A stretch of DNA of 20,860 bases from Dudresnaya verticillata (taxonomy: Eukaryota). Positions 1 to 20,860 of the stretch are shown piece by piece. Within the stretch, counting starts at the first letter, position 1. The number at the start of each line of letters is the position of its first letter. The notes beneath the pieces are model-generated. The model was not told the origin of the DNA and did no database searches. It worked only from the letters and a program-made list of their open reading frames with translations. Location: positions 3,534,001 through 3,554,860 of the forward strand of contig OZ374558.1 in NCBI GenBank assembly GCA_977862235.1, read 5' to 3'. A program made the translations under genes and the position numbers.

Positions 1-2
1 AG

Positions 3-639: not shown

Positions 640-1924
640 TGGTACTGTACGACCAGAGTAGTGAATTTACATGAAGAAGACGGGGACCGTGTCTAGAGTC
701 GTTCGGGCAACCCAGGAGAGCTTAGGGGAGCGGGAAGATGAGAGCCGGCGTAGGCGCAGTACCAACATGCTCCGTAGGTCGGACCATCTGTCGGCGGGCC
801 GGACGATGCGTAACAGGGCACGCAGCTTCGATAAGCGACGCCGCGGCATGGACTCGGACCGTTGCCCGATGACAGTGCGGACGTAGCAAGATTCAGCGTC
901 CAAGGTGTGTTGTAGCGCGAGGGCGTTGAGCGGAGAGATGGCGAGGGCATACACGTAGACGGGTCGCAAGAACATGCGAAAAATCGACCTGGCGGCGGCT
1001 ACTTGAGGTTGCCCAGGAGCCTCTTCGCCTTCCGGGTACGAGCGACAGTCGAGGCGGAGCCAATTCCCGTGGTCGTGAGTTCAGCTCCGAGGTAGATCGC
1101 GGAATCCGTTACAATAAGTCCTCTCCGTTAAGCTGCAGCCTTGCAGACGTAGGGCGGCGCCCATGGCGAGTCGGTAGAAGGATGTGTTCGGCTTCGGGAA
1201 TGCAGCTGAATGGGACTGCCAGAAGAGCAGTGGCGCAAAAACATGATTGGCCGCGGGCCAATGAAATCAAATGAAATTATTTGGAGTTCAAAGATGGAAC
1301 AAACCATTAGGCTTACAGCCCAATCATCCAATCATCCAATAAGGCGTCACCAGCAGTGCGAGATGCATTGCTGTGCGGCCATTCTCTGTAATGCAGATAT
1401 GATCGGATGGCGCGTGGAGTTGACGTTGAGCTGAGAGATAAAGAGATGGGGACCTTTATGGTAGGGTTCGAAGGGCGCTATTGAGAGCGAGCTCTGTCAT
1501 GCTGCTAGAGCGATGTACATACATATTCTCGTGTGCAGTATACCACGGGCGAGTCATCGAAGCCGTGCAGAAGGCCCGCCCGCCGCTGCTCTTCAAGTCG
1601 TATGCATAGTGGATGGAGCACGGCGTCAATTCGCAAGGGGACAATCTGCGTACATATTCAGCAGGAGAAGCCACTCGGGTGGTCGCCAGCGCAGGGGTCC
1701 GTGAGGCATCGCGCTTTCGGCTGGTCGCGGCACGCGTTTTCCGCGCCGCGGCGTTCGGTGAAAGTTGCCAGCCGGGTGAAGGCACGCTGTCAAGTGCACG
1801 AGCAGCTACTAGTGTGTCGGGTGCGGGTCTGCCCCCCACAGCAAAATATACTGGGACTAGGAGGGAAAAGAAACAAACGATAGGGGGGTGCCATCCATCT
1901 TCTCTGTGGCGGTGGTCGTGGGTG

Positions 1925-1951
1925 CTGGGTTTTAGGGGTTTAATTACCCCT
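1925..1951 (+). repeat. Interstitial telomere-like motif (CTGGGTTTTAGGGGTTTA) overlapping a short inverted repeat AGGGGT-TTAATT-ACCCCT
   Basis: Read directly. The 18-mer at 1925-1942 is identical to 19506-19523 at the subtelomere/telomere junction. Confidence 0.7.
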
Positions 1952-2499
1952 CCTTGGGGGATTTGGTGGGGGGGGGGGATTTTGTGCACGATTTTTTACT
2001 TGGCCGCAAATCAGTCGGGGCGGCTTGTAAGCACCCCCAAACCACTGTAAATGTTCTGCGATGTGATTGGCTGGCTGAAATGGGGCTAGACTGGGCCTTG
2101 GTTGCCGCTTGAGGGGAACCCTCATGGGGTCTGACAGAGGCCTAGCCTAGCAAACAGTCTTGCAAGTTTTGTAAAGGCTTGCGGGGTTCTGGATACGCGG
2201 ACGGTTTTTTTTCGGAAGTTGTTTAGGTTGACCGTGTTGTAGTGCTCGGTACTTCCTTCGCTAGGCGGAACGTTTGCGTGAGTGTTGCGAGTCCGCCACT
2301 TGCGATAATGAGACTTCGTTGGAACGGTGGTGTCGTCAAGGAGAGGATCACGTGGAATGGCGGCAAGGAACTGCGCGTTGGCTATTTGAGGGGTTTACGT
2401 TGTAAGATGAAGAGACGTGGGACTTTACCGGGATAATGGAAACCGTATTTGCAGTATGGAATGCTCTCAGAGGCTTATGGATCGCGTTACGTAATTGTG

Positions 2500-3085
2500 G
2501 AGTCATTGCGAGCGAACTGGGTGGTGCGGAATCGTTTCCGGGCTCCTGGGAGGGTTTCGCAGGGTTGATAAGCTTCTTGTAGAGTGTTGGGTGTGCAGCG
2601 TGAGGGATGGGGCGTAGAAATGCGCTAAGAGGGTCATGGTGCGAAACCCGGAATTGAGAACGCGGGTACTAGGCTATTTGAATGTGCAGGAATGGAATTG
2701 GGGAGTACGAGTGAACGAAACGGGGCTGCGGGGTCGTTTCGGGGCTCCTGGGGCGGTTTCTAAGGGTTGTTCAACTTCTTGTGCAGTCTCGGGCGCTCAG
2801 CGTGGGGCACGGGCTTCAGAACTGCTAAGGCGGGTTTTTAGGCGTTCAGCGTGAGGCATGGGGCTTAGAAATGCGAAGGCGGGCACTAGCCTATTTGGAT
2901 GTGAAGGAACGGAATTGCGGAGTAAGCGTGAACGAAGCGGGGACTGCGGGATCGTTTCGGGGCTCCTGGGAGGGTTTCTAAGGGTTGTTCGACTTTTTGT
3001 ACAGTCTCGGGCGTTCAGTGTGAGGCATGGGGCTTAGGAATGCGCTAAGAGGTTCATTGTGCGAAAGCCGGAATCAGGAAGGCGA
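2500..3085. repeat. Degenerate tandem repeat, about 3 copies of a 200-220 bp unit
   Basis: TCGTTT(C)(C/G)GGGCTCCTGGG..GGTTTC..AGGGTTG recurs at 2532, 2734 and 2952 (periods 202 and 218). Shared blocks include GTGAGG(C/G)ATGGGGC(T/G)TAG(A/G)AATGCG. Confidence 0.85.
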
Positions 3086-3609
3086 TTTGAGAGGAAACGT
3101 TAGTAATTTGCCCTGGGGCTTAACTACATGAATGGTGGATTATCCGTAACTACAGAATTGGTGGAATATGGTGCTTTCCGGGACTGAAGTGTGATGTGGG
3201 ATTTTTGCTTTGCTGCTGAGGGTTCATTCGTGATGTACGCAGCCATTAATACCAATCCGTTACGGTAAGGGAGCGAGGGCCATGGCAGGGCGAGATGCCG
3301 GGATTCTGCATCGCAACCGAGGATAATGAAATTCTGGACCGGCTGCGGTGTACCCCGCAAAAATTAAAAGTTATGCCAAATTGCGTTGTTATACCGTAGT
3401 ACGTGACTGACACGCAGTTGGAAGTTTCCCGAATTGTTTTGCCGTGTGAGAGAAAGGGCCGTATTTAAATGGTCGGTCAGAGAGACACCGCCGGGAAAGA
3501 GGAAACGAACAGACGGAGAATCGCCATCACCCTGCCCTGCCCCCCCCCTCACATCGCCGTTTCCCGCCTCCCCTCTCCTAGCCCGTTGTTCACATTAGAA
3601 ACTCTCGCC

Positions 3610-5154
3610 ATGGAGCTGGAGAATGTCCAGGGTCTGGACCCTGGGTTGCTGGCAGTGCTTCATGTGTATGCGAAAGGAACAATTGTTCATCCTGAACAGT
3701 GTGAGCTGCTATTCGGCCGAAAATGGGTTGAGGAGGCTGCAGAGAAGAGGAGAAGTGAACTAGAAGCCGCACTGGTGGAGGCGAAGGCGAGTCAAGCTGG
3801 TCGTGTGCAGGCTAAGCGCCAGCCGAAGGCGAATCGGGTTGGTCGTGTGGAGCGTCAGCGCTTCAAGGGACACAAAACGTCCAAGTACCAGAGAAAGCAT
3901 GTATCGGGAAGTAGTACTGCATCTGCGATTCTTTCCAGGCTCGGTAGGAATCCGTTTTTCCTTCATGTAAAGGAGGAAGCGGGAAAATTATTCAAGCGTG
4001 GGTACGGAACCGGGTCTGCTTCCGATCTCTGGTTTCTGCTATCGCCTCGAATGGGATTGTATCAATGGATGTGGATAAAGGAGGAGTTTCTCGAGAAGCT
4101 GGGCCGCAAAGCGCATGAGTGGATGATTCCGGACACGGTTTTGGAGGAGCTTAGGCAGGAAGATGAGGGAAGGTTCACTGAGATCATTGGCCGTTGCCAG
4201 ACTGCTTTTGTACGGGAGCAGATGAGAGTACTCCGGCAGCGAGGTCTCTCAGCCGTTGAGCACCTAGTCCGTGACCCAGCAGAGTCATTTGACACCGGCC
4301 GAAAATGGATCCGCTGGCAAAACAACTCCTGTGCTCTTGATGCAGTTCTAATGGTAGTGCCTCGCCTGATTCAAGCCTGTTTCGATCACGGAATGTACAG
4401 GCAGGGTGAGGATCTGGTTCTCTCGCCTACATATACATCCCCTTTAGCCAGTTTGTTTGCCGCAATGCGCATCATCAATATTGCGGAAAGCACAAAGGAA
4501 CAGATGGCAATCTCAACAGCAGCACGTGATCTACTGTACGACCTTTGCGGGTTCTATTGTGACATTCATGACTGGGATGCAAGAAATCTGTGGTCAGCGA
4601 GAAGTCGTGAACAGCCATTCCTCGATGTTGGGGACATATGTCACTCGCTACTCAGCCCGTTGATATTGGCGAGGTCAACAGGGTCGCGATGTAGCCGTGA
4701 GATCGCGCGCGGAAGCGTCCGAGTTGATGTTCTGGACCAGGAAGCACTGATGGTTCTTGGGAGGCCGAATCATAAAGGCCTGGCTTCTTATATCCTGGAG
4801 AAGCTGGTCGCTTCTGATCACTTGAAGGAAAAACCGTGTTTGGCCTTTGTATCTATACCTACTCATGTTCAAAATGAGGCCATGGTGAGGAATGCGCTCT
4901 GTAAAGGATTGGCGGCGGAGGATTCGACATGGAAGGGTGACATAGCCGAAATGATAAGTTTCTCGACCAGGAAGCAGCATTTTGTAACTGGGCTTTGTCG
5001 AGGACAGGATGTGGTCTATTTGCATGACGGGATGCAAAACGAAGGTCGAATGATGAGAAGCAGCCTCGACGACGCGTTCAAATCTACGAATCGTCGAGTA
5101 TCATTGCGCATACCCGGTATGCAGCTCTTCTTCGTCGTCTCTAAGAAGAATTAG
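3610..5154 (+). CDS. Putative papain-fold cysteine protease (USP/deubiquitinase-like), 514 aa; open frame extends upstream to ATG 3469
   Basis: Long uninterrupted ORF; ATG 3610 lies in a GCCATGG context. Cys-box-like WQNNSCALDAVL (Cys codon 4330-4332) and His/Asp-box-like QHFVT...VVYLHDGM (His 4978-4980, Asp 5026-5028). The function is inferred from motifs only. Confidence 0.65.
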   Translation: MELENVQGLDPGLLAVLHVYAKGTIVHPEQCELLFGRKWVEEAAEKRRSELEAALVEAKASQAGRVQAKRQPKANRVGRVERQRFKGHKTSKYQRKHVSGSSTASAILSRLGRNPFFLHVKEEAGKLFKRGYGTGSASDLWFLLSPRMGLYQWMWIKEEFLEKLGRKAHEWMIPDTVLEELRQEDEGRFTEIIGRCQTAFVREQMRVLRQRGLSAVEHLVRDPAESFDTGRKWIRWQNNSCALDAVLMVVPRLIQACFDHGMYRQGEDLVLSPTYTSPLASLFAAMRIINIAESTKEQMAISTAARDLLYDLCGFYCDIHDWDARNLWSARSREQPFLDVGDICHSLLSPLILARSTGSRCSREIARGSVRVDVLDQEALMVLGRPNHKGLASYILEKLVASDHLKEKPCLAFVSIPTHVQNEAMVRNALCKGLAAEDSTWKGDIAEMISFSTRKQHFVTGLCRGQDVVYLHDGMQNEGRMMRSSLDDAFKSTNRRVSLRIPGMQLFFVVSKKN

Positions 5155-5446
5155 GGGTTCGCGCGCGCAGGGCTGGAGTGTGCATGACTGGCGGTAACGG
5201 GCGCCCACTGCCTGATAGGGAGTAGTTGGTACTGGTAGATCATAGTTGTAATATAGTTTGTCCCCCGCGCCCGTTGGTAGACGGAAAAAATATACTTTTC
5301 CCGCTATAATTCCTACTTGCTCCGCCTATTTCAACAATCTCTACTATCCGGGCTGCGAAACCCACTGACCGCAGACCACAGACGGCACGTGCACACCTAT
5401 AGTAGCGCCACCCACCCTGTGACCGTCTGCTGGACACACCCGGGCC

Positions 5447-6643
5447 ATGTTTTGCGTTTTCAAAGCCCCTTCAAAGGACGAGCCGGTACATGTCCTGGTC
5501 ACACACTATTCAAATCCAGGCACAGTAGGGGCTCTCCCGAACTGTGAATCGCTACCAGATGCAGTGCGGTTGAAGCATGACGTCGAAACGTACCGAAGAA
5601 CAGGGTTATTACCGCTTGTGACAATAATTGGGCCGTTCAAGGAAGGGGAAATTCCCTTGGTTCTTTCGGGTGCCCTCGTCGTGAAAGGAAACACCGTTTT
5701 CATCAACACTAGAGCAGGGCAGTGGCGCTACAGAGGAACCTGTCATGAAGAAGAAAACAGAAGGGTTCTCGCAAAGGCATCCTCCGAGGGTTTACCGGAC
5801 GCCGTGCCGCTTTTGTGCAAGAGCGGGCACACTACAACGGTTCGCTGGGTCAATTTGCGTGAATCAGAAGACCCGATCACAAGGAAAGGATTGGAGTGCA
5901 TGCGTTGGGTTGCCGCGCTTGCTTATCGCCACTGCACAACTACCCAGCTGCTATTCAAGTGTATGTTTGAACCTGGTGTGAATCTGAACGCACTTAGCTT
6001 AAATAAGCAGGAAGCACTGGGCGTCTGTGGGGAGTTGGGCAGTACTTCAATGTGCTGGGTCTGGCACCCTTCTGGCGTTCCTCGAGACCTTCGAAGTTGG
6101 CTCAAGTTCCTTCACGAGAATAATCTCAATGTTGCGCAGCGGCAGAAGATTAGAGAGGTATACAGTCCAGTTCTGGCCGGTTTCTATCTTGGGGTAGTTG
6201 AAGACGACCGAAGAGGTAGCCCTACGGTCGTGCTGTGTAATGAGGGAGAAAGCGTGTTAGAATTGTCCGTTGGGCATCGAATGGGCAGGAATGAGCTCCG
6301 AATGAGTATGGACATGTGCTTGTGTTCTCCGATGGACGAGCACAAGAATAGCGTGTCGTGGGGCTTCGCAGGTGCCATACTTGAGGTCCCGGTATTCATC
6401 ATTAGCAGTATGCTGAAGATAAGTGCCATTGGCCCGAACAATTCGTTGCCTAAGAGCTCAACTCAGAGAGTAAGTTGGCTGAACAGGCGGCGAGGAGACC
6501 AAAGCTGCAATGCCGCGGTCCTGAACGAGGTGGTTCTTGAGAACGTTCTCCGACTACCAGCTACATCGTTGGAATCCGTCCTTGGTCCTCGCGAACTGCC
6601 GAGATCAGCTGAGAACTTGCCTCAAAAGGTGCAGAAGACGTAA
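5447..6643 (+). CDS. Hypothetical protein, 398 aa
   Basis: 1.2-kb ATG-initiated open frame with globular-protein-like composition, co-oriented with its neighbours. No family recognised. Confidence 0.6.
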   Translation: MFCVFKAPSKDEPVHVLVTHYSNPGTVGALPNCESLPDAVRLKHDVETYRRTGLLPLVTIIGPFKEGEIPLVLSGALVVKGNTVFINTRAGQWRYRGTCHEEENRRVLAKASSEGLPDAVPLLCKSGHTTTVRWVNLRESEDPITRKGLECMRWVAALAYRHCTTTQLLFKCMFEPGVNLNALSLNKQEALGVCGELGSTSMCWVWHPSGVPRDLRSWLKFLHENNLNVAQRQKIREVYSPVLAGFYLGVVEDDRRGSPTVVLCNEGESVLELSVGHRMGRNELRMSMDMCLCSPMDEHKNSVSWGFAGAILEVPVFIISSMLKISAIGPNNSLPKSSTQRVSWLNRRRGDQSCNAAVLNEVVLENVLRLPATSLESVLGPRELPRSAENLPQKVQKT

Positions 6644-7003
6644 TATCGTAGAGCATCGAGGCGTCCTTGCGTCCTCGAAAGCCTTGTAACTGTTGTTGTG
6701 AATGGACTGCAAATGTAGGACTAGAAACATATAGAACCTGTTACTGGCGGTCCTGGCGCTCGTAAATATATCTCTTTTTTGGATATTCACTATGGCATTG
6801 TTTTCGAATCGAAATGGCGTCAATCCTCGTCCGCTCCCGACGACCGTGCCGCCAATTTCGCAACTTTAGTTCGCGTCCGGTGCCCCCGCTGCTGCGCATG
6901 TCGTACAAATACCCGCGCAACAAGTCATCAGTGAACTGTTGTATTGCATCGACTCCACTCTCAGCTGCTACTACTATCGCGGTATCCTCGGTTCGACCAC
7001 AAT

Positions 7004-7963
7004 ATGTCTTTGGCTCAGTTCCGTAATTGCGCTTTCCGTAAGACTTGGGTCTGTGAGATGGCGATTTGCAGCCTACCGATCGAGATCCCGTCCATACCTT
7101 GTTCAGAGAGCGACTTCCTTACATATTTGGCAGAGGACCATATGGAGAAGAAGGAAGTTGACCTCAATGTTGCTCTCGTACTGGCATATGGCGAGCACCT
7201 GGATCCCAGACGCGCTGCAGGGATTCTCGAAAATGTCCTTCAAGAGCATCCGCAGGAGTTGTTAGCTGCACATGCCCTTGCCAATCTGTATGTTCAGAAC
7301 CGCGACAACAAATTCGGGAAGACGGAATTGATCCGAGGTATTCGACTGTTGGCGGATGGACTCGACCGTGGTGACTTGAAGGCTACTGTCGCTTATGTGC
7401 ACTTCTCGGATGAAAACAAGTTTGGCTCGATAGCGCATCCACTCACAGATCGAACTGCCCTCCTTCAACGCGTGATCAGGAGCGGTGAGGGCGAGGAGAG
7501 GTACCACGCCAGTCTGATGCTGGCGAAGAGCTTTCACAGGGGAACACACTGCTGTCCCAAGGACACGGCTCGAGCACTACCACTCTACGAGATAGCCGCA
7601 GAGCTAAGGGGTTTTTCAGGCAAGCGAGACTTTCAACCTCTGAAAACACTGGCCTTCATGGTGTACGAGGGCGAGGGGATTGATGCTCCGGACTATCTCC
7701 GTGCCAAGAAAATACTCGAGCTCCTTGTGGAGCTTGATGCTCGGGCGCTCCCTCGTGCGGACTTATACGACGCTTGCAATAAGTTAGGGGAGATGTACTT
7801 CAAGGGCCAGGGATGCGAGAAGGATCTTAATTCCGCCAAGAGGCACTTCAAGAGAGCACGGACCATAGCGAATGATCCGTTTTTCGAGGCGGAAATGCGG
7901 AAGAAGATTGCAGAAATTGATGGAACCATGTCTTGTGAGGACCAGGAGGGACCAGGTAATTAG
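7004..7963 (+). CDS. Sel1-like repeat (SLR/TPR) protein; start ATG 7004 or 7058
   Basis: Sel1-type repeats ASLMLAKSFHRGTHCCPKDTARALPLYEIAA, LKTLAFMVYEGEGIDAPDYLRAKKILE and ACNKLGEMYFKGQGCEKDLNSAKRHFKRA. Confidence 0.8.
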   Translation: MSLAQFRNCAFRKTWVCEMAICSLPIEIPSIPCSESDFLTYLAEDHMEKKEVDLNVALVLAYGEHLDPRRAAGILENVLQEHPQELLAAHALANLYVQNRDNKFGKTELIRGIRLLADGLDRGDLKATVAYVHFSDENKFGSIAHPLTDRTALLQRVIRSGEGEERYHASLMLAKSFHRGTHCCPKDTARALPLYEIAAELRGFSGKRDFQPLKTLAFMVYEGEGIDAPDYLRAKKILELLVELDARALPRADLYDACNKLGEMYFKGQGCEKDLNSAKRHFKRARTIANDPFFEAEMRKKIAEIDGTMSCEDQEGPGN

Positions 7964-8322
7964 CTCTCCAGGTATGCCGTAGCCATCCTTGCAAAACAAG
8001 TGAAAAAAGGGCCACTTGCGCTTCTCCCGCCGGCAAAGGCCGCGATGCTTGGTGATTATAGTTGCATTTCGTGGATAAAGCTACACTTCTCTACCGCCAT
8101 ACTGCCCCCCGTATTTACGCGCAGTCGTTGTGGCGGCAGACGTGGCGACAACGGCGACAACGCCTGCAGTGTGAGCGAAAATATCTTTCGGGCTTTGCGC
8201 GCTTGCGTTCTACCTACTCCACCTTGTCCAGGAGCAGAGCTGACTTCTCGGTTGCATTATCGCAGATAACTTATGTTACGACATAGAGGACGACAATAAG
8301 GTTTGGGCGGCTGTGGGACGCG

Positions 8323-8497
8323 CCAATCAGAAGGTCTGTTCATAACAGGGTTCCCGGATGAACGGGATTTTTAATTGGCTGCTGCAGTGGGGCGCCACGA
8401 GCATACGGTTGGCCCCTAATCGCACCAATCAGAAAGCCTGTTCATAACAGGGTTCCCGGATGAACGGGGGTTTTAATTGGCTGCTTCATTGAGGCGC
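8323..8497. repeat. Two-copy 73-bp direct repeat (8323-8395, 8425-8497), each with oppositely oriented CCAAT boxes
   Basis: CCAATCAGAA..CTGTTCATAACAGGGTTCCCGGATGAACGGG..TTTTAATTGGCTGCT is repeated with period 102. Confidence 0.85.
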
Positions 8498-9102
8498 AGT
8501 TGCTAGCACTACAGCATGGACACGATTCGCACAACCTTGGTCTCGGAGTTCAGCTCTAAAGGTCTGCCCGAGTGGTCTATATTCTCACTCAGCTGAGGGG
8601 ATGGAGAGGGAGAGAGGAAGAGAACTGAGCTTCTACGATCATGCGTGCTTGTAGTCGATGTGGAGCGCGGCGCGGAAGCGTTGGAACAGGATCAGTTCGT
8701 CGTCGTCTGGCCCGGAGGTTTCAAAGAGTTGGAGAAGGCATGGTTTGGTGTCTGAACAGAAAGTGCCATTATGTTGGGCACAGAAGGATGCATGCCGGCG
8801 TAGGAAAAAATGTTACCTTCTCTTTCAACGGCGCCGAGTGTGTCGGTACCAAAGGTTGTCTCGGAGATGGTTTAGTCAGCGGGTGGCTCTCGGGATGTGT
8901 CGCGCTTCTAAATAGATTCCCGGATGGAATAGGAAAGTAAAGCCCCTGCTATAACTGAAATTCCGGTTTATTGGAATGCCAGAGACGAGGAGAATGGCTA
9001 CGATGGAAAAGCCTGTTCGACCTTCCTGTCAGAGGTTGGTGTCAGGATCTAAGTATAGAGCATGCAAATAAAGAGATTAAACTGAGTAGGAAAGGGGTTA
9101 GC

Positions 9103-9205
9103 GGAATAGGAAAGGGACGGGAGATAAGGAATAGGAAAGGGCCCAATGGAATGGGAAAGGGCCCAATGGAATAGGAAAGGGCCCAATGGAATGGGAAAGG
9201 GGAAC
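9103..9205 (+). repeat. Purine-rich 20-bp minisatellite (GGAAT(A/G)GGAAAGGGCCCAAT), about 3.5 copies plus degenerate flanks
   Basis: Read directly. Confidence 0.85.
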
Positions 9206-9498
9206 AAGGCTAAAAGAATCAGGTTAAAGGGATAGAAGGTGAGTCGTCAGCAGGTGGAGTCCGGATGGCACCGTAGAAGTACAGTGCTATCCGCCGGATT
9301 CCGGGAACGGTTGGAGTACCAGCACGCTATTCAAAAAGCCATAGTGTGTAAACAAACGAGGGAAGAGACCAAATACCTCGCTAGATGAGATGCTGCAGTA
9401 TATGGAAAGGTGCGCGAGCAGCGGGATCGAACCGAACGGGATACGGTGCGAAAGGGAACCGAATGTATGGGAAAGTGGCCGGTGCGAAGGAGTAGGGA

Positions 9499-9717
9499 GG
9501 GGGACGGATAGAATGGGAAAGAGAACGGATAGAATGGGAAAGGGGACCGATAGAATGGGAAAGGGGACCGATAGAATGGGAAAGGGGACCGATAGAATGG
9601 GAAAGGGGACCGATGGAAAAGGAAAGGGGACCGATGGAAAAGGAAAGGGGACCGATGGAAAAGGAAAGGGGACCGATGGAAAAGGAAAGGGGACCGATGA
9701 ATGGTAAAGGGGACCAA
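9499..9717 (+). repeat. Purine-rich 21-bp minisatellite, about 10 units in two subtypes (GATAGAATGGGAAAGGGGACC, then GATGGAAAAGGAAAGGGGACC)
   Basis: Read directly. It produces the spurious repetitive ORFs (RMGKGTD)n and (FLFHRSP)n. Confidence 0.95.
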
Positions 9718-9918
9718 TACTAAAAGAACCCGGCTCTGGATGGAAGGATGAGTCGTTAGCAGGTAAAGTCCGGATGGCGCCGTATAAATACGGTCCTTCC
9801 CGGCGGCTTCCGTTGTAGAACTACAACGGCTTTCACAATGCCAAACGGCTCTGAAGACAGTCAAGATCAGATCCGGCTTTGGATCACGGATCGGATCCGT
9901 GAGCATTCTGTTCGTCAA

Positions 9919-10012
9919 TCCGGAGCATCGACGCCGTTGGCGTTACAAGGAGAACGGTGCAATGTCCGGAGCTTCGACGCGGTCGGCGTTACAAGGGGAA
10001 CGGTGCAATGTC
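9919..10012. repeat. 46-bp tandem duplication
   Basis: TCCGGAGC(A/T)TCGACGC(C/G)GT(T/C)GGCGTTACAAGG(A/G)GAACGGTGCAATG starts at 9919 and 9965. Confidence 0.9.
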
Positions 10013-10355
10013 TCGTGAGAATAAACAGCTTTGGATCTCAGATCTGACGAGAGGAGCCGTTACGGAATACACATCATCAACGCCGACAGAACCGAAACAG
10101 TATTCCCGCCAATAAGGCCAGATGACCGTTCCAATATCTACTCGAAGTGACGCAGTTCCACCGATCACCCGCCCCCTCCCCTCACCCATTGCGCACTCCG
10201 AGGAAAGTTGAGTGTGGCGTGCGCGATTGCGAACCGGACTACGGCAACGTCTTGCGACGGTCTCCGACAATCCTCTCTCTACAAGAAGCGCGCTAACACG
10301 CAGACTTCTGCAGGCGACAGGCGATTCAGCGTTGCCTCTGAAGGATCCACGAGGG

Positions 10356-10378
10356 CGACGACGACGGCGACGACGACG

Positions 10379-10422
<44 letters not shown>

Positions 10423-10440
10423 AACGACGACGACGACGAC
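10356..10440. repeat. (GAC)n microsatellite, about 28 units with a few interruptions
   Basis: Read directly. Confidence 0.95.
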
Positions 10441-10562
10441 CCACCGCGGCGAAGCAATTGAGTTAATTACTTCTCTTCGGTTTCAATTAACGGTATGTAA
10501 TTGCAAATTTCTTTTGGTACCGCTTACACAATTGTTCGGAGTGATTCGAGTGGCGGTGTCAA

Positions 10563-10738
10563 CGGGAACGGCCGTATACGGTCGTTTCCAAGTCGGACAG
10601 CACCGTAATATTACGGTGCTATCCGATTGACAGTCGCAGTGTGAAGTTACGGTGGCATCCGAATCGGAAGCTTATCGGACAGCAAAAACGAAAGCGACTG
10701 TGAATCGGATAACACCGTAATATTACGGTGCTGTCCGG
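10563..10738. other. Cluster of 34-bp palindromic sites just upstream of the helicase ATG
   Basis: 10593-10626 TCGGACAGCACCG-TAATATTA-CGGTGCTATCCGA; 10705-10738 TCGGATAACACCG-TAATATTA-CGGTGCTGTCCGG; short-spacer variant at 10563-10590; half site at 10642-10662. Confidence 0.85.
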
Positions 10739-10832
10739 TTTGCCGTTTAGAAATTATTGTATACTGACTTGAAATTCCCATGTTCCACTTGTTTCAGATC
10801 GAAAGTAGTGCAATTGCGGAGCTCTGCGCGGA

Positions 10833-13800
10833 ATGAACGGTCTTAACGGAGGTGATGGGGTCCAGGAGTCGGAGTTGAAGCTCGAGGAATATGGCTTACG
10901 TCTTATTCCGGAGGTCGCGGAGCTTCTGTGCGTCGTATGCCAGCATGCCGTATTCTTCGGTGTGCAAGGACAGGACAATCTCTTCAGGCATTTGCAGAAG
11001 TGTCAGCCGTGGAAACGGGTCACCCGCATCGAATCGAAGGAAGTGTACAAGTCGTGGGATACCGTCAAGAGGGCCTGTGTGCGCACGGCTTCTGAAGAGG
11101 ATTACCATGTGTACATTGGGAGCTCAGTTCGAAGCTCTTCTCGAAGAGCCGTGCGCAGGATTCCATTTTTAAGAGTTATGGAGTGCATTCCTTGCCCTCA
11201 ATGTTCGTTCTTGTCTTTGTCTTCTCCATCGTTGAAGAAACATTATGACGCCGAACATAACTCTTCTGGAAAGTCCATAAGTCTTGCGGAGATCAAGGGC
11301 CTCGGAGGTGTAAAGTGCCAGAAGCTGTTTAAGGGAACTGGCACAGGAAATCCGTTTCTACTAAAGGATGGCGGAGCAGCGGAGTGTACCGGGAATGGAG
11401 AAGCCCGGGCAAGCGGGGAAGGTTCATCTCATGTCCAGCTTCTATTGCACGAATTGAGCGAGGCCAGGAAAGGAAGGATGAAGGTAGAAGAGCCGGAAGA
11501 GAAGGACGTGAGGAGAATGGGTCGTTTTGCAAGTTGCACGAGGCAAGATTTGAAGCTCGAGCAGCTGCATCTCAGCATGGAGGAGGCTTCCAGGTTGAGC
11601 GGAGATGCCTGCCGCGGAGAGAAGGTTTTTGACCAAGATGAAGTCGAGCTGAAGAAGTGGCTGACAGAAGCCGTTCTTTCCGTATTCCAGCATGGCCGTC
11701 GCTGCTCACAGAGGCCCAATATGACGATGTCCAGGGTAATGTTCGCTGTTCGAGCACCTCCTGGTGCGACGGGGAGCCAAAAGGTCGAGTTTGCCTGGGT
11801 AGAGAGGCAGTCCGAGAAGAGGTATGCCTCCTTCGTGTCTCGTGGAGCGTTAGCAATTCTACGCATGATTAATGCGTCTCGGGAAGGTGAGGAGCTCATC
11901 GCCAGTGAAGAATTACGCTCTGCCTGTGAGAAGGTGATGGAGGTGTATCGTGAAGAGACTCAGGAAGAACCGGAAGGCGCCGTAAAAATACGGCGCTGTC
12001 CGACGGGACCGTCCGAAAGTATAGTGGCGATGCACGCTTTGCTGAGAGCTTTGTTGTATGAAAGGGTGAGCGTGGATGAAGGCAGCCACTTCTGTGCTGC
12101 TCACGTCCTAACAACCTGTCTTTGTGTGAAGCGTGCGGGAGGGGGGGTTACATTTTCTGAGGGCAGGGATCTGTCTCCATTTCTTGCTGCACTCGCCTAT
12201 GCGAGTTCTTGCTGCGCTTTCATCGACATATGTAGCGTTGAGAAGGAGGGTACTTGTGATGAGGAGTTGGCCAGGGTGGAGTTGAGGCATCAAGCCGGCG
12301 GGAGTTTAGGGATACATTTTCTCCAGTCCCTTTGCTTGCAGGCTCGACGGTTTCGGAATGAAGAGTACTCCAGGAACACATGGCTTCCATGTGACGATCC
12401 TGAGCACGTGGGCAAGTGCTGCGGGTACGTGGAGGGGCTTCACATGAGCCCTGATGAAATTGGTATTTGTGTGAAGAAGATGCAAAAGGAGGCGGTGAGC
12501 CTAATGTTCGACCCAACTGGTATTCTCTGCGGGGTAGAACTGCCAAAGGACTTTCAGAAACGCCTCTCGAATATGGTAGACGACACCAGGAAAGAAGACA
12601 TTCCGTATGGATTCATGGAAGATGAGCGGAATGCTGAGATTGTCAGAGAATGCCGCGATCTCGTCGATTCTGCGGTGAGAAAGATGGATTCATTAGACGA
12701 ACGAGCATTCGAGAAACGCGCAAGGGCGATGCTATCGAAACTAAGGAAGTTCCATGTACTCATGGTAGCCTGTTTGCATCTGGCGGGTGGTAATGTCTGT
12801 CGCGGTCCGGAGCTTGGGTTCTTGGCCGTGAGAAATACGGTCAGCGGACCACGTGGGATTCAACTCCCGGGTGGCCCCCGAGTTGCTGTAATTCCAAGTT
12901 ACGACAAGACAAGGAACATGAAGAGGGGGAGAATGCGTGTCATTAGCAAGCATCCTGATGTCGTTACGAGCAACCTGGTCAAATTGGCGATTCTCGTTGG
13001 GATGGAGTTCAGGCTAGCGTTGTCCCGACTTGTCAGTAACAGGGAGTCAGGGCGTGCGGCCGCGGTCGACGAAGATGGGGCAATGGACTATCTCATGCCA
13101 ACGGCTAGTGCACGATCGGGGTGCCTGCAGCTCGCGGGGAACATGTGGAAGAGTTTTGGTCTGCCTGAAGAATATGGGGCGGAGAAACATCGACAGTGGT
13201 TTGGTGGATATGCGACCGACAAGGCCAATACGGACGAGAAGTTCCGTTACGTCGAGAAGATATTGAATGGTTTCAACAAGGGAGATTCGGATGCTGCTGC
13301 GCTGAATAGTGGAGACCTTGGAAGTGTGATGCAGGTGCAGGGAGCACACTGTGTGCATATCGCGAGAACTCTGTATGGAGCTTGCGCACCGAACATTGCC
13401 GGTGGCGGTGAGGTAGATGATCGGAACATGAAGCAGTTCAAGCAAGTATCTGACTGCTGGCTCGCAGATTGCGGCTTGGACAAGAACTTTGATTGGAACA
13501 AACTCCAGGGTGGCGATGAAGAAGGAGAAGGGCGTTCCCGATTGAGTCGGGTTGTGCAGGCGCGAACCGTTTCGGGTGTCAAACGCAGACTCTTCTCTAG
13601 CGGAAGCGGGACAGGAAGCGTGTCGAAACCGGAGAGCGCCGTAATTTTACGGCCGCTTCCGGAAAATTCAGCTGTTCCGAGAGATGCATCAGAGCCGGAG
13701 AGTACCGGAGGATTACGGTGCTGTTCGCCTGTGGATTTTTCAAGGCAAGCCTCCAAACCGGAGAGCGCCGTAGGATTACGGTGCGGTCCGGTCGTGGATG

Positions 13801-15686
13801 TTCCCAGACAAACCTCCGAACCGGATGGCACCGTAGGATTACGGTGCCTTCCGATTCCTAAACATTGTGATTCGGCGGGGCAAGCAAGCGAAGTTGAAGA
13901 CGCCGTAGAAGTATGGCCGCCTCCAGAAACGGGAATTGGAGAGGAAAGAGAGTCGCAGGAGCAAGGAAGGGATGTAGAGAGCGCTGATGGACCCAGTGGT
14001 CCCGGATTGGGAACTGGAGGTGGCGGAAAGGGTGTGAAAAGAGCGATGTCGGGAGACCTGGCTGGAGCCGTACTCCCACGTGCACGCAAGCAGAAGCTTC
14101 AAGGACAGGAGGCGTTGAATGAAGGGGAAGAGAGCAAAGGTGCGGAAAGTGGGAGCGCCGGGGTGTTGGACGGCAATGGGCATGGTCTCCGACTGGATGG
14201 GTGCGATGTTTCTGAGATGAGTCGAGAAGAGATGGCTGATCTATTAAGGAAGTGTTTGGCGACAATCTCGGAATCGGAGCAGAGAAAGAAGGCTTACGAG
14301 GACGAAAAGCGGCACACCGAGAAGAGGGAAAGCGATAATATTATAGGATTGGGTGATGAACTCATGTCAGATGCAGCACGTCGCCGCTCTGATAAGGATA
14401 ACCGTACAGTCGAAGCTCGCAAAGCAGAGCGTGAGGCTTCAATTGCACGGCGTGTACAGGAATGCCTTGCGCACGCTGTAGGGGACCGTGATGCCGAGTT
14501 CAAAAGCGAAGAACAGAAGCTGGCAATGGAACTTGTATTGCGCAAAGAGAGTGACGCATTAATCGTGCTGAGGACAGGAGGTGGGAAAACCGCCGTTGTT
14601 TTTGGGCCCGCTTCAAGTGAACAAGGAGTGACTATTTTTATATGCCCCCTTCGATCACTACGGGAGGAGATCAAGTTGCGATGTGATGATATCAGGCTGC
14701 CCGTTGTCGATATTGAAGACTTGGACAACAACGAAGTTGAGAAGCGCTTGATGCCGAGAGGTATAATCCTTGCGTCTCCTGAGATCGTGTCCTGTCGAAA
14801 GTATAATTCGGTGCTGAGGAAACTGTACGGAGAAGGGAAGTTGATGCGTGTTGTTGTTGATGAGGCTCACATCGTTGTTCTGAGTGCCCACTATCGCAAC
14901 TGTATGTTACGCATGCGGCACGCAAGGCCGGATGGTGTCCAGGTACCGATCATTATGATGACGGCCACTGCACCGCCACATTTGGAGAACCGTATAATAG
15001 CTGGTAACGGAGCCGTGGTCGGGAATACGAAGGTGATTCGTGGCAGCCTCCGTCGGGACAACATAATGTATACCGTGGAGCGGCTTTCGAAAACGACTGA
15101 CGAGGAAGTGGGGCACTGTATCAGACACGCTGTCACCCATGCAGTGAGTGAAGCGTTTATTGTGCGTGGTGGCGGCAAAGTTCTCGTGTGTGTGCTTACG
15201 AAGGGCGAGGCTGATCAAGCTCATGAACTTCTCGAGCGGAGCAGAATGTTCTCGGGAACAGCGCATATTATAATATGTAAGTATCACAGTGGAATGAGTG
15301 TTGAAGCACGGCGGAACAGTGTGGCCGAATGGGGCCGAAACGGGGCAGCACAGCGCTCCGTGTGTGTAATGGTGGCCACGGAAGGATTTGGTACAGGTAT
15401 CGATGCCCCCGACGTGGCTCAGACTATAATTGTTGGGAGCAGCCGATCGCTAATGGAGCTGTATCAAGTGGGTGGGCGTGTTGGTCGGGATGGGAAACCA
15501 GGGAGCGTTAGTGTACTGTACCATCATGAGTATGCTGACCGCGCCAACGTGAAGGACACGGAGTCACTGATCGCCTTGAAACGGTTTCAACGGTGGGCCG
15601 AGGACACGAGAAAGTGTCGTGTCAAGGAACTTGAGCAGTATTTGGGATGCCCTGAGGAGCCTTCGGATTGCAGAAAACGTGTGTAG
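10833..15686 (+). CDS. Telomere-linked RecQ-family helicase (TLH-like), 1617 aa to the first stop: N-terminal Zn fingers, tyrosine-recombinase-like domain, repeat linker and DEAH helicase core
   Basis: Helicase motifs: FKSEEQ, LRTGGGKT (I), VVVDEAH (II), MTATAPP (III), YHSGMS, VATEGFGTGIDAPDV (V), YQVGGRVGRDG (VI). N-terminal CVVCQHAV..LFRHL and CPQC..LKKHYDAEH. The central HLAGGNVCRGPEL..YDK..HRQ..QGAH..IARTLYG resembles the conserved block I recall from fungal TLH-like proteins. The gene lies about 3 kb from the telomere. Confidence 0.92.
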   Translation: MNGLNGGDGVQESELKLEEYGLRLIPEVAELLCVVCQHAVFFGVQGQDNLFRHLQKCQPWKRVTRIESKEVYKSWDTVKRACVRTASEEDYHVYIGSSVRSSSRRAVRRIPFLRVMECIPCPQCSFLSLSSPSLKKHYDAEHNSSGKSISLAEIKGLGGVKCQKLFKGTGTGNPFLLKDGGAAECTGNGEARASGEGSSHVQLLLHELSEARKGRMKVEEPEEKDVRRMGRFASCTRQDLKLEQLHLSMEEASRLSGDACRGEKVFDQDEVELKKWLTEAVLSVFQHGRRCSQRPNMTMSRVMFAVRAPPGATGSQKVEFAWVERQSEKRYASFVSRGALAILRMINASREGEELIASEELRSACEKVMEVYREETQEEPEGAVKIRRCPTGPSESIVAMHALLRALLYERVSVDEGSHFCAAHVLTTCLCVKRAGGGVTFSEGRDLSPFLAALAYASSCCAFIDICSVEKEGTCDEELARVELRHQAGGSLGIHFLQSLCLQARRFRNEEYSRNTWLPCDDPEHVGKCCGYVEGLHMSPDEIGICVKKMQKEAVSLMFDPTGILCGVELPKDFQKRLSNMVDDTRKEDIPYGFMEDERNAEIVRECRDLVDSAVRKMDSLDERAFEKRARAMLSKLRKFHVLMVACLHLAGGNVCRGPELGFLAVRNTVSGPRGIQLPGGPRVAVIPSYDKTRNMKRGRMRVISKHPDVVTSNLVKLAILVGMEFRLALSRLVSNRESGRAAAVDEDGAMDYLMPTASARSGCLQLAGNMWKSFGLPEEYGAEKHRQWFGGYATDKANTDEKFRYVEKILNGFNKGDSDAAALNSGDLGSVMQVQGAHCVHIARTLYGACAPNIAGGGEVDDRNMKQFKQVSDCWLADCGLDKNFDWNKLQGGDEEGEGRSRLSRVVQARTVSGVKRRLFSSGSGTGSVSKPESAVILRPLPENSAVPRDASEPESTGGLRCCSPVDFSRQASKPESAVGLRCGPVVDVPRQTSEPDGTVGLRCLPIPKHCDSAGQASEVEDAVEVWPPPETGIGEERESQEQGRDVESADGPSGPGLGTGGGGKGVKRAMSGDLAGAVLPRARKQKLQGQEALNEGEESKGAESGSAGVLDGNGHGLRLDGCDVSEMSREEMADLLRKCLATISESEQRKKAYEDEKRHTEKRESDNIIGLGDELMSDAARRRSDKDNRTVEARKAEREASIARRVQECLAHAVGDRDAEFKSEEQKLAMELVLRKESDALIVLRTGGGKTAVVFGPASSEQGVTIFICPLRSLREEIKLRCDDIRLPVVDIEDLDNNEVEKRLMPRGIILASPEIVSCRKYNSVLRKLYGEGKLMRVVVDEAHIVVLSAHYRNCMLRMRHARPDGVQVPIIMMTATAPPHLENRIIAGNGAVVGNTKVIRGSLRRDNIMYTVERLSKTTDEEVGHCIRHAVTHAVSEAFIVRGGGKVLVCVLTKGEADQAHELLERSRMFSGTAHIIICKYHSGMSVEARRNSVAEWGRNGAAQRSVCVMVATEGFGTGIDAPDVAQTIIVGSSRSLMELYQVGGRVGRDGKPGSVSVLYHHEYADRANVKDTESLIALKRFQRWAEDTRKCRVKELEQYLGCPEEPSDCRKRV
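13629..13926 (+). repeat. Five in-frame copies of the 34-bp palindrome inside the CDS, giving 21-24 aa peptide repeats (e.g. KPESAVGLRCGP)
   Basis: Sites start at 13629, 13695, 13758, 13821 and 13893 (the last is degenerate). Spacings are 66, 63, 63 and 72. Confidence 0.85.
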
Positions 15687-16517
15687 GAGAGGACGGAATC
15701 TTACATTCGGTGTTGTGATTACTGCGCTAGGTTTTCTCCGGTAGTGGAAGCAGCGGAATCGCCGAAAAATGACGAATTGGACGAGTCGTCATCTGATGAC
15801 ACCGGTTCTTCACAGCAGAGCCCGTCCTTACGTCCAGCAAGGAGTTTGCATGAGGTTGGTGGTGGAATAACCGAGCAAACGGCAAATACAGGGAGACAGA
15901 GACAGACGGAAGAAACTGTGCAGTGCACCCCGGAGGATAGCGCGGTGGCTGCAGTTCGCACGGCGAGTGGAGCAGGCGAAGCAGTTGAAGAACTGCGGGA
16001 TCTTGCCGTCAAGCTGGCTGGTGTGTGCCCGCCTTGCTTTGGTCGTACGAGGCCCGGTGACAAGGTGTCAATCCGTGCCTGCCGGAACAGCCAGCATTCG
16101 AGTAGCTGCTATTTTCGGCAGTGTATACGGTGCATGTCCGGGGGGCACGATGCAGCCCAGTGCACTGTACGGCCTTGGAAGGCACGCGGCGGTGTGTTCA
16201 GCGCTGGTTGTTCGGAGTGCTCGATTCGAACGTTTGGTTCGAAGAAGCTCCATGTAGGGAGCGGCAGTCCGAGGCGAGGACAGAACGAGTATGGGTCGTC
16301 GGAACGTTGCCCGTTCTTCAGACCCGTACAGCTAGCGATGGCTTTTTGGAGCCACGAGGAGAGGCGCACGGAAATGCTTGCGCATCGTGGGATGCGACGT
16401 TTCAGGAGATGCTCAAGTTTGAAGGCTTTCTGTGAGGAGCTTGTGTTGGACAAGCCTGGGTGGTGCCCAGGAATTCTTGAGTTCTCTCGGTATGCTGTGG
16501 AAGTGTTTGATTTGTAG
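15687..16517 (+). CDS. In-frame C-terminal continuation of the helicase beyond the TAG (rest of the RecQ Zn-binding motif plus a Cys/His-rich C-terminus)
   Basis: Same frame as 10833: KCRVKELEQYLG..SDCRKRV*ERTESYIRCCDYC, open to the TAG at 16515-16517. Contains CPPC, CIRC..GH..QC, CSEC and CPF. Read through, the CDS 10833-16517 is 1894 codons. Confidence 0.75.
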   Translation, partial: ERTESYIRCCDYCARFSPVVEAAESPKNDELDESSSDDTGSSQQSPSLRPARSLHEVGGGITEQTANTGRQRQTEETVQCTPEDSAVAAVRTASGAGEAVEELRDLAVKLAGVCPPCFGRTRPGDKVSIRACRNSQHSSSCYFRQCIRCMSGGHDAAQCTVRPWKARGGVFSAGCSECSIRTFGSKKLHVGSGSPRRGQNEYGSSERCPFFRPVQLAMAFWSHEERRTEMLAHRGMRRFRRCSSLKAFCEELVLDKPGWCPGILEFSRYAVEVFDL

Positions 16518-16959
16518 TGCATGCGATGTGGAGATTGGTACGGAATGGAAGTATAGTTGAGTTCAGAATAAATCAGGAAACAACATCGCAGTAATGCAGG
16601 TCAAGGCGTGGGAGAAATTTACTGCTGGTGAAAGGGACGTGAATATCGTGTAGAGAAGCGGACTGTGTGCGAGAATATGTCAGTAATATGCGCAACGCAA
16701 TCGCTCGAGAATTATCGTTGAATGCGTGTGTTAGCGGGGAGAGAGTCGGAAGCTTACCTGAATGTATTTTTGTAGATGAAGATCGGGCTAGTCCGGAAGC
16801 CACCGTAAATTTACGAGGGTTGCTGGTTGCCATGTCTCCACGTCCTCGAGATTAGCGTACGGGTGAACCGGAAGCCCTTGTAAACTTAAGATGACTTCCG
16901 TTGTATCTTGAACTGTTGTAGAAGCGTCTTGAAGTGAAGTAGAGCCTAGGAGGGTGCAG

Positions 16960-17305
16960 TGCGTAGAGCGGGGGCGGCGTTGGAGCGGATAGCACCGTAT
17001 AATTACGGTTCTATTCGGTTTAAACGTGTAGAGCTGGAGCGGCGTTGGAGCGGATAGCACCGTATAATTACGGTGCTATCCGGTGGAGGAGTGTAGAGTA
17101 TGTAGAGCTAGGGCGGTGTTGGATCGGATAGCACCGTATAATTACGGTGCTATCCGGTTGAAGAGTGTAGAGTATGTAGAGTTGGGAACGCGTTGGAGCG
17201 GAGAGGACCGTATAATTACAGTGCTCTCTGGTTTGAGGGTGTAGAGTATGTGGAGCTGGGACGGCATTCGACTGGAGAGCACCGTACATTAATTCATTGA
17301 GCGGG
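16960..17305. repeat. Tandem array (65-74 bp unit), each unit carrying the 34-bp palindrome
   Basis: Sites at 16985-17018, 17050-17083, 17124-17157 and 17198-17231, plus a half site at 17272. The four full sites have the spacer TATAATTA, and the inter-site DNA is conserved (GTGTAGAGTATGTAGAGCT-like). Confidence 0.92.
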
Positions 17306-19507: not shown

Positions 19508-20860
19508 GGGTTTTAGGGGTTTAGGGGTTTTAGGGGTTTAGGGGTTTAGGGGTTTAGGGGTTTAGGGGTTTTAGGGGTTTTAGGGCTTTTAGGGGTTTAG
19601 GGGTTTAGGGGTTTAGGGGTTTAGGGGTTTTAGGGGTTTAGGGGTTTAGGGGTTTAGGGGTTTTAGGGGTTTAGGGGTTTTAGGGGTTTTAGGGGGTTTA
19701 GGGGTTTAGGGGTTTAGGGGGTTTAGGGGTTTAGGGGTTTAGGGGTTTAGGGGTTTAGGGGTTTAGGGGTTTTAGGGGTTTAGGGGTTTAGGGGTTTAGG
19801 GGTTTAGGGGTTTTAGGGGTTTAGGGGTTTAGGGGTTTAGGGGTTTAGGGGTTTAGGGGTTTAGGGGTTTAGGGGTTTAGGGGTTTTAGGGGTTTAGGGG
19901 TTTAGGGGTTTAGGGGTTTAGGGGTTTTAGGGGTTTTAGGGGTTTAGGGGTTTAGGGGTTTAGGGGTTTAGGGGTTTAGGGGTTTAGGGGTTTAGGGGTT
20001 TAGGGGTTTAGGGGTTTAGGGGTTTAGGGGTTTAGGGGTTTAGGGGTTTAGGGGTTTAGGGGTTTAGGGGTTTAGGGGTTTAGGGGTTTAGGGGTTTAGG
20101 GGTTTAGGGGTTTAGGGGTTTAGGGGTTTAGGGGTTTAGGGGTTTAGGGGTTTAGGGGTTTAGGGGTTTAGGGGTTTAGGGGTTTAGGGGTTTAGGGGTT
20201 TAGGGGTTTAGGGGTTTAGGGGTTTAGGGGTTTAGGGGTTTAGGGGTTTAGGGGTTTAGGGGTTTAGGGGTTTAGGGGTTTAGGGGTTTAGGGGTTTAGG
20301 GGTTTAGGGGTTTAGGGGTTTAGGGGTTTAGGGGTTTAGGGGTTTAGGGGTTTAGGGGTTTAGGGGTTTAGGGGTTTAGGGGTTTAGGGGTTTAGGGGTT
20401 TAGGGGTTTAGGGGTTTAGGGGTTTAGGGGTTTAGGGGTTTAGGGGTTTAGGGGTTTAGGGGTTTAGGGGTTTAGGGGTTTAGGGGTTTAGGGGTTTAGG
20501 GGTTTAGGGGTTTAGGGGTTTAGGGGTTTAGGGGTTTAGGGGTTTAGGGGTTTAGGGGTTTAGGGGTTTAGGGGTTTAGGGGTTTAGGGGTTTAGGGGTT
20601 TAGGGGTTTAGGGGTTTAGGGGTTTAGGGGTTTAGGGGTTTAGGGGTTTAGGGGTTTAGGGGTTTAGGGGTTTAGGGGTTTAGGGGTTTAGGGGTTTAGG
20701 GGTTTAGGGGTTTAGGGGTTTAGGGGTTTAGGGGTTTAGGGGTTTAGGGGTTTAGGGGTTTAGGGGTTTAGGGGTTTAGGGGTTTAGGGGTTTAGGGGTT
20801 TAGGGGTTTAGGGGTTTAGGGGTTTAGGGGTTTAGGGGTTTAGGGGTTTAGGGGTTTAGG
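19508..20860 (+). repeat. Telomere, (TTTAGGGG)n, about 165-170 units, G-rich strand running to the window end
   Basis: Read directly. Variant units (TTTTAGGGG, G5, one GGGC) are confined to 19508-19941, and the array is homogeneous distally. Confidence 0.98.

Follow-up and report, generated by a model that had tools for sequence, protein, structure and literature searches.

A 20,860-nucleotide stretch of Dudresnaya verticillata DNA (assembly GCA_977862235.1, contig OZ374558.1, forward-strand positions 3,534,001 to 3,554,860; hereafter the window, numbered from its first letter) carries, close to a chromosome end, a gene of the telomere-linked helicase (TLH) type, whose product is predicted to fuse a tyrosine-recombinase fold to a RecQ helicase, together with a family of 34-bp palindromic sites (dyads) lying in and around it. 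Our results suggest that the dyads are very likely binding sites of the element's own protein, a view common to four of the five readings that we weighed. This is the likeliest interpretation because the sites track the gene and because relatives carry element-specific dyads in a similar layout. That the recombinase domain itself does the binding is somewhat probable. As to what the binding serves, we lean, with less than even confidence, towards a nick-and-unwind activity, in which the protein would bind its own palindromes, nick there and unwind from the nick.

Architecture of the TLH-type gene

The gene product would comprise, in order, an OrsD zinc finger, a tyrosine-recombinase-fold domain, a linker, RecQ and a Cys-rich tail. 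Its features are as follows.

10833..16517, plus strand: TLH-type gene, 1894 codons in one frame with one TAG at codon 1618 (open reading frame (ORF) reading, homologue alignment)
10923..11261, plus strand: OrsD/DUF3505 C2H2-type region, aa 31-143 (Pfam E 0.0046, below the curated cut-off)
11658..13388, plus strand: predicted tyrosine-recombinase fold, aa ~276-852, core-binding and catalytic (model, alignment)
12801-12803, 12906-12908, 13191-13193, 13347-13349 and 13374-13376, plus strand: predicted catalytic codons R657, K692, R787, H839 and Y848, respectively (alignment)
14511..15494, plus strand: RecQ helicase core, aa 1227-1554, DEAD and Helicase_C (Pfam)
15684..15686, plus strand: TAG, probably premature, within the RecQ Zn-binding region; the frame runs on to 16517

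The N-terminal CxxC..H motifs align with those of homologues. The best solved relatives of the RecQ core in the PDB are BLM, RECQ5 and RECQ1. Among named relatives a Chondrus crispus RecQ comes first, which points to a probably red-algal host. Up to the TAG the ORF has 1617 codons (10833-15686), and Cys motifs beyond it are kept in four of five aligned homologues. The TAG is likelier to be a premature stop or a sequence error than part of an intron; an intron removing it was rejected, the motif length being equal to that in homologue P0002. Because of this stop the window copy is probably decayed, and an intact paralogue acting in trans would be needed.

Judged by its architecture, the gene appears to be of the TLH type. 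Subtelomeric helicases of Fusarium have the same architecture, according to the accessible parts of two reports (bioRxiv 10.1101/721753; bioRxiv 10.1101/2024.02.27.582403). None of the relatives among the homologue matches is named TLH; the agreement with fungal TLH lies in the position of the middle domain and the overall architecture.

A predicted recombinase fold with a conserved catalytic set

A phmmer search with aa 221-900 retrieved 117 relatives, and a word-index search with aa 480-900 found no relative. The resulting alignment holds 125 sequences, five of them near-duplicates, and counts for each column are over the sequences covering it. R657 is kept in 110/113, E660 in 110/112, K692 in 110/111, R787 in 87/91, H839 in 86/87 and Y848 in 86/87; the R657-K692-R787-H839-Y848 set is complete in 81 of the 85 homologues, and E660 stands for the R+3 Glu of tyrosine recombinases. 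In a metagenome scan by one peptide pattern, which gave at least 58 loci of relatives and is a biased sample (loci are labelled L, and locus counts throughout are among the matches listed), the same five residues are kept in 45 of the 46 loci covering all five columns, the first Arg being required by the pattern. Y848, for which the initial annotation had proposed a Y848F mutant, is our predicted nucleophile.

The position three residues before R787, equivalent to Cre His289, is E784 in the window protein, is mostly S, R, N, Q or G in 91 homologues, and is His in 3 of 46 metagenome loci. Thus, the window protein lacks the His of H-x-x-R that marks recombinases as against topoisomerases IB. The latter have no His289-type residue, and in Cre this residue is dispensable and most substitutions are tolerated, whereas Glu is inactive (PMC2943603, accessible part). 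Since the equivalent position is not His, the active site seems to be topoisomerase-IB-like.

In support of the fold, a structure model built from a 47-sequence alignment reached a predicted local distance difference test (pLDDT) score of 84 and a predicted template modelling (pTM) score of 0.82, compared with a pLDDT of 39.5 for a single-sequence model. When Foldseek candidates were realigned with VIA-align, ranks 1-10 were all of the recombinase family (Cre Z 8.7, root-mean-square deviation (rmsd) 4.2, 264 aligned), and the next unrelated entry had Z 4.1. In a comparison with 48,161 chains, the first 20 places all went to recombinases, recombinase-like proteins or type IB topoisomerases. Xer had Z 9.4 (rmsd 3.4, 169 aligned) and an integron integrase 8.7 (4.4, 264); XerH, topoisomerases IB (Z 8.1), Cre and Flp were also included. 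SroF and MrpR were also among the top matches, and we take them to share the recombinase fold. The middle domain is therefore predicted to fold as in Xer, Cre and topoisomerase IB. Together with the conserved R-K-R-H-Y set and the matched RecQ motifs, this prediction supports the tyrosine-recombinase/RecQ fusion proposed earlier.

Among viral models in BFVD, the best fold match to the model of aa 221-900 was B5LWN9, an uncharacterised protein of 620 aa from Feldmannia species virus (E 2.8e-3, template modelling (TM) score 0.36), which makes a link to algal virus integrases possible. The nearest named ESM Atlas clusters were NDC10_II and Phage_integrase (0.86; a lead only). Protein scans of viral contigs found no relative of the protein, and tblastn gave nothing in phages and one match in plasmids (E 0.6).

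Dyad sites in the window

The dyads are distributed as follows (unstranded features).

9261..9294: dyad site, upstream of the gene, in a 64-bp duplicated context common with 9770 (consensus, repeat search)
9770..9803: dyad site, upstream (consensus, position weight matrix (PWM))
10589..10742: promoter-proximal block, with sites 10593 and 10705 in a 49-bp inverted repeat (92%) and a lone right arm at 10648 (consensus, repeat search)
11970..12003: in-frame dyad, aa 380-391, falling in a predicted coil where the alignment shows a variable insertion (alignment, model)
13629..13926: linker array of 13629, 13695, 13758, 13821 and the decayed 13893 (repeats, PWM, alignment)
16793..16901: two decayed downstream sites, 16793 and 16868 (consensus, PWM)
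16985..17305: downstream array of 16985, 17050, 17124 and 17198 (same centre) and left arm 17272, in 65-74-bp units (repeats, consensus)

The initial annotation had counted about 17 sites. Fourteen clear ones, within seven mismatches of the 34-bp consensus, lie exactly where it placed them: 9261, 9770, 10593, 10705, 11970, 13629, 13695, 13758, 13821, 16793, 16985, 17050, 17124 and 17198. The remainder needed correction: 16868 (10 mismatches) and 13893 (paired PWM 6.9 bits, where the other sites score 25-49) have decayed, 17272 consists of just a left arm, and the half-site put at 10642 is a right arm starting at 10648. Thirty windows simulated under an order-2 Markov model gave 0.03 matches per window at seven mismatches and none with fewer. 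A dyad search that used no consensus recovered a 13-copy family in the window, compared with 1, 1 and 1 in three simulations. Moreover, 15 paired half-sites share one spacing, against 4 pairs in total over 20 other spacings tested, two of them overlapping real sites.

Full sites are confined to 9261-17305, with none in 1-9200 or beyond 17305, so that within the window they track this one gene, as had been claimed. The sole arm elsewhere is a right arm at 3167-3181 (18.3 bits), 6 kb before the first full site. All six intragenic sites, the decayed 13893 included, lie in one shared frame, and the linker array consists of 63-72-bp in-frame units (aa 933-1032) that five aligned homologues lack.

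The half-site consensus is CCGGATAGCACCGTA, and its final two bases (TA) are near-invariant (27/28 and 28/28 half-sites). By conservation the arms are 15 bp long and flank a variable 4-bp centre. The earlier 13+8+13 layout was right as to a fixed-spacing dyad; sequence cannot fix the boundary between arm and spacer, and that layout is one possible parse. The spacers listed with it are present in the sequence, as are the three symmetric arm changes. Overall symmetry of the arms (175/238) is within chance (shuffled 170.4 +/- 3.6, p=0.13). Many copies sit in 63-74-bp tandem units and are not independent of one another. Window cores are 74% alike among copies, compared with 32-36% for the 12-bp flanks.

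Relatives carry their own dyads

Among the 58 metagenome loci, 37 are at least 4 kb long. In nine loci the consensus-free search recovered dyad families, each of 4-13 copies (nulls 0-2), and a matrix scan added L045 as array-positive. The same search also flagged a tandem block in L026 and an AT-rich family in L023. The L026 candidate and the first family of L016 proved to be tandem-repeat blocks and were left out of the site count. Arrays are thus present in 10/58 loci and in 8/37 of those of at least 4 kb. Note that L030 and L032 are the same sequence and that L043, L057 and L058 are 90-93% identical. All array-positive loci belong to one clade (ultrafast bootstrap 100, 29-sequence subset), which appears to be fungal (Atlas 0.91, small introns). 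Arrays are real but patchy, and occur in about two independent lineages.

These relatives use 24-bp palindromes, of which four types can be told apart by their half-sites: GCGCAACCGGTC in L016, AAATATGCGGTC in L041, AAATAAGAGGTC for type B and AATTAGCATACG for type A. Such sites occupy upstream tandem blocks, introns, the linker that follows the recombinase domain and downstream DNA, and some stand in frame within conserved coding sequence, a layout similar to that of the window; in L016 all 17 sites fall in 2061-7330 of 11,390 bp. The type A and B matrices matched no other listed locus, save one weak stray in L001, and did not match the window. In the region compared, L012, L016 and L041 share 16-18% identity with the window protein. 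Across the window and the relatives, cores are 74-92% alike between copies and flanks 24-44% (one 61%). Compensatory arm changes exceed shuffles only in the related L043 and L058 (p=0.002 and 0.008); as an argument they were rejected for the window (p=0.13), L012, L016, L041 and L057.

An orthologous intron, recognized by its GT-AG ends and frame, was seen in 11 loci. Six of them have a type A dyad there, L016 and L041 each have their own type, and L014, L015 and L026 have no dyad. Because the intron holds each element's own site type, the site seems to have been replaced along with the element lineage. This replacement bears on the possibility that the sites are unrelated to the protein and represent a host-factor site, remnants of palindromic mobile elements or minisatellite drift, duplicated locally. 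The tandem units, the lack of arrays in most listed relatives, the overlap of type A dyads with intron branch-point-like sequence (L012, L030, L043, L051 and L057; for example L030:3867-3921) and the lack of any exact copy of the site in viral contigs would all suit such an origin. We nevertheless consider it improbable: similarity ends sharply at the arm ends, single sites stand in unrelated contexts, some are in frame within conserved coding sequence, the intron site changes with the lineage, and an Rfam scan gave no match. A type A hairpin at the branch-point-like sequence could affect splicing.

Binding without cutting is brought to mind by the same layouts, and we regard it as unlikely, if the most credible of the rivals. 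The dyads would be self-tags like those of VANDAL/VANC and the catalytic tyrosine would act elsewhere, at unlocated element ends; the protein, through its recombinase fold or its zinc fingers, would coat the locus against silencing, repress the promoter or load the helicase in cis. In the accessible part of PMC5735166, VANC motifs are described with the same features: tandem arrays upstream, positions in introns and in terminal non-coding DNA, and rapid turnover between related elements. The presence of two site types within one element, two of the best window sites lying 94-240 bp ahead of the ATG, and a weak, different motif repeated upstream and in the orthologous intron of the array-negative L014 (6874-7239 and 9235) are also in its favour. 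VANC motifs, however, are 8-9 bp, whereas the present sites are long dyads (24 and 34 bp) with a fixed spacing and the shape suited to a dimeric recombinase; nearly all relatives retain the catalytic set, and the element ends were not found. Motifs similar to the weak one of L014 were seen in L028.

Three telomere-ended loci (L019, L021 and L047) carry the same middle domain as the window gene; the contig end of L047 has TTAGG-type repeats. None of nine array-bearing contigs checked reaches a TTAGGG run. A search of array-negative loci for dispersed non-palindromic motifs gave nothing clearly above null except telomeric or tandem repeats (37 loci of at least 4 kb; 18 regions). The protein collection yielded no site-coded peptide.

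Centres of the sites and strand exchange

The initial annotation had envisaged loxP/FRT-style excision, amplification or exchange between chromosome ends. The first of these is not supported by the centres. Their 6-bp sequences are equal in 11/120 site pairs, 10 of them within one cluster, and the only match across clusters involves the decayed 13893. Among the 16 sites, in either orientation, no upstream centre matches a downstream one. Five or six sites are intragenic, arm symmetry is within chance, and most fungal centres are self-complementary.

More generally, in a crossover of the Cre/Flp type a tetramer would join two sites and swap four strands. The version that survives, exchange between same-position sites on sisters or on other chromosome ends, has in our view a small chance of being correct. 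The 34-bp length and fixed spacing, the match of Cre over both domains and the identical centres within arrays fit it. TLH units are tandemly arrayed in Fusarium (bioRxiv 10.1101/2024.02.27.582403, accessible part), and L001 carries, about 4.5 kb downstream of the first, a second partial copy of the recombinase region (6775-7327, 77-84% identical), which reads as a tandem copy. Crossover is harder to reconcile with the missing His289 equivalent and with 9-17 sites, in fungi mostly with self-complementary centres, since free recombination among these would be expected to delete or invert the gene. Related loci also align continuously through the intragenic sites (L043 versus L057, 2,976 bp).

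Self-complementary centres recall protelomerases, in which case a dimer would cut both strands of one site and reseal them as hairpins, resolving fused ends or capping an end that lacks a telomere. The gene is telomere-proximal, the sites are dyads, TelK and TelA are among the fold matches, and the best sites fold as single-strand hairpins, as expected of any palindrome. We find this very improbable. The fold matches to TelK and TelA (Z 4.7-4.8) rank lower than those to Xer, Cre and topoisomerase IB; Pfam showed no telomere resolvase at E<=0.1; most window centres are not self-complementary; the window has no long inverted duplication centred on a site; and intragenic cutting would destroy the gene.

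The nick-and-unwind proposal

We return to nick-and-unwind, in which every step past the co-occurrence of the sites with the catalytic set is inferred. One recombinase domain would sit on each arm of a dyad, and Y848 would make a reversible nick and stay joined to the 3' end. The fused 3'-to-5' RecQ would then load on the held strand and open the duplex. The opened strand could invade a sister or another TLH-bearing chromosome end, leading to copying and unequal exchange, with tandem units that contain the sites as a by-product. The sites would serve for self-recognition and as start points, rather than as paired crossover points bounding a cassette.

Tyrosine enzymes of this class hold the 3' end. 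They leave a free 5'-hydroxyl (PMC2943603, accessible part), and RecQ moves 3' to 5' (according to the accessible text of bioRxiv 10.1101/2024.02.27.582403). With the 3' end held and this direction of movement, the fused helicase would be placed to unwind the held strand. The sites lie where the gene tolerates them, in flanks, a loop, the linker and introns; unmatched spacers and intragenic sites fit reversible nicking better than crossover.

Several observations weigh against nick-and-unwind. Glu occupies the window's His289-equivalent position, an equivalence by spacing only, and is inactive in Cre; catalysis of the window copy may be impaired through Glu784. A Foldseek search of the model against the PDB gave no match at E<=0.001, and the fold Z-scores are middling, yet the matches point consistently to one family and extend over both domains. 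Arrays are lacking in 48/58 loci (29/37 of those of at least 4 kb), including the close relatives L014, L026 and L028 of the same clade. Neither the telomere-ended L019, L021 and L047, in which the catalytic set is intact, nor the five loci nearest to the window protein (L001-L004 and L020, four of them short) have an array above null. As close and telomere-ended relatives are among those without arrays, the family does not require them. L030/L032, L043, L045, L057 and L058 carry two unrelated dyad types (A and B), which one symmetric recombinase does not simply explain; the zinc fingers or another protein may bind one of them. Finally, the fungal evidence comes from one clade, which makes about two independent cases in all.

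The chromosome end

The window is a eukaryotic chromosome end, closed by a telomere tract.

19508..20860, plus strand: telomere tract (TTTAGGGG)n, ~167 units (tandem-repeat reading)

The TLH-type gene is oriented toward it, with ~3 kb between the end of the frame (16517) and the start of the tract. At 1927-1941 there is an interstitial telomere-like stretch, oriented like the terminal tract; by analogy with Fusarium TLH arrays, it may be the trace of an earlier chromosome end or of a boundary between modules. Positions 1-650 hold broken reading frames with an EF-hand-like stretch (read by eye), probably a pseudogene. Two ORFs (3469-5154, 561 aa; 5447-6643, 398 aa) have no Pfam match at E<=0.1, and a Sel1/TPR-repeat gene is found at 6944-7963 (Pfam).

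Upstream of the TLH-type gene, repeat blocks occupy 9100-10012 and 10356-10440. They hold two purine-rich arrays (20- and 21-bp), after each of which comes a site, the whole forming a 509-bp duplication. A 46-bp doublet that partly resembles the arms and a (CGA)28 run are also present. Similar upstream repeats are the HAR blocks of Magnaporthe oryzae.

Known and new aspects

TLH genes and eukaryotic tyrosine-recombinase elements are already known. According to the accessible text of the 2024 Fusarium study (bioRxiv 10.1101/2024.02.27.582403), chromosome ends of fungi and choanoflagellates have been known to carry TLH genes for more than 20 years, and these genes help S. pombe to recover from telomerase crisis; their function is there called undetermined. 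Our search of the accessible literature found no link between the TLH domain and a recombinase or cognate sites. A predicted catalytic tyrosine and a candidate cognate site make TLH function directly testable, and the window and its relatives offer four or five natural protein-site pairs. If true, nick-and-unwind would be a route of spread for eukaryotic selfish elements that helps to explain the spread of TLH genes, and the proteins would form a natural set of orthogonal site-specific nickase-helicases.

Comparison with known systems

The TLH genes of Magnaporthe oryzae, Fusarium oxysporum, S. pombe (tlh1/2), Ustilago and Monosiga are telomere-adjacent, as is the window gene. They share with it N-terminal C2H2 fingers, a conserved middle domain, RecQ motifs, frequent broken paralogues and repeats on the flanks. 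In the accessible parts of the papers examined, their middle "TLH domain" is given no function and no cognate sites; the window gene differs in the predicted recombinase fold of this domain, in its probably red-algal host and in its dyads throughout the gene. The M. oryzae HAR-D array, which ends 181 bp before the TLH start codon, contains a 23-bp imperfect palindrome (PMC1635262, accessible part), and this may be a published hint of sites near TLH genes.

Cre-loxP, Flp-FRT, Xer-dif and the integron integrase have the two-domain fold and R-(E)-K-R-H-Y set predicted for the window protein, and Cre-loxP-type systems use a 34-bp dyad of fixed spacing, as here. Inverted arms at the fixed 6-8-bp spacing of Cre and Flp sites are found in 15 paired half-sites, but none of the 16 sites, in either orientation, provides the shared spacer of bounding sites. 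The window protein further differs in having no His289 equivalent and in its fusion to zinc fingers and RecQ, and the window has about 16 sites, many intragenic and with unmatched centres, where the Cre-loxP group has one matched pair.

VANDAL/VANC elements, in the accessible part of PMC5735166, likewise have element-specific motifs in tandem repeats, introns and flanks that change between relatives, and so do the inverted-repeat arrays next to Plavaka PAG3 in red algae (bioRxiv 10.1101/2025.02.11.637652). Here, by contrast, the dyads are longer, the protein is unrelated, and the candidate binder would be the cutting enzyme itself, joined to a helicase. Crypton, Starship and DIRS belong to the tyrosine-recombinase superfamily, as predicted for the window protein, which differs from them in its RecQ fusion and has no Pfam match to their domains (E<=0.1). 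No terminal or bounding repeats were found among the window repeat families examined.

Helitron RepHel and the conjugative relaxase-helicases join a tyrosine nicking enzyme to a helicase suited to the held end. These systems use an HUH fold, a 5' link and a 5'-to-3' helicase. The window protein would be their mirror image, combining a recombinase fold with a link to the 3' end and a helicase that runs 3' to 5'. Speculatively, and with more doubt than we attach to nick-and-unwind, TLH genes could form a distinct class of eukaryotic mobile elements, a "mirror-image Helitron" that makes a 3'-phosphotyrosine nick, peels the strand with its fused 3'-to-5' RecQ, copies between chromosome ends and maintains ends independently of telomerase, its sites co-evolving with the protein.

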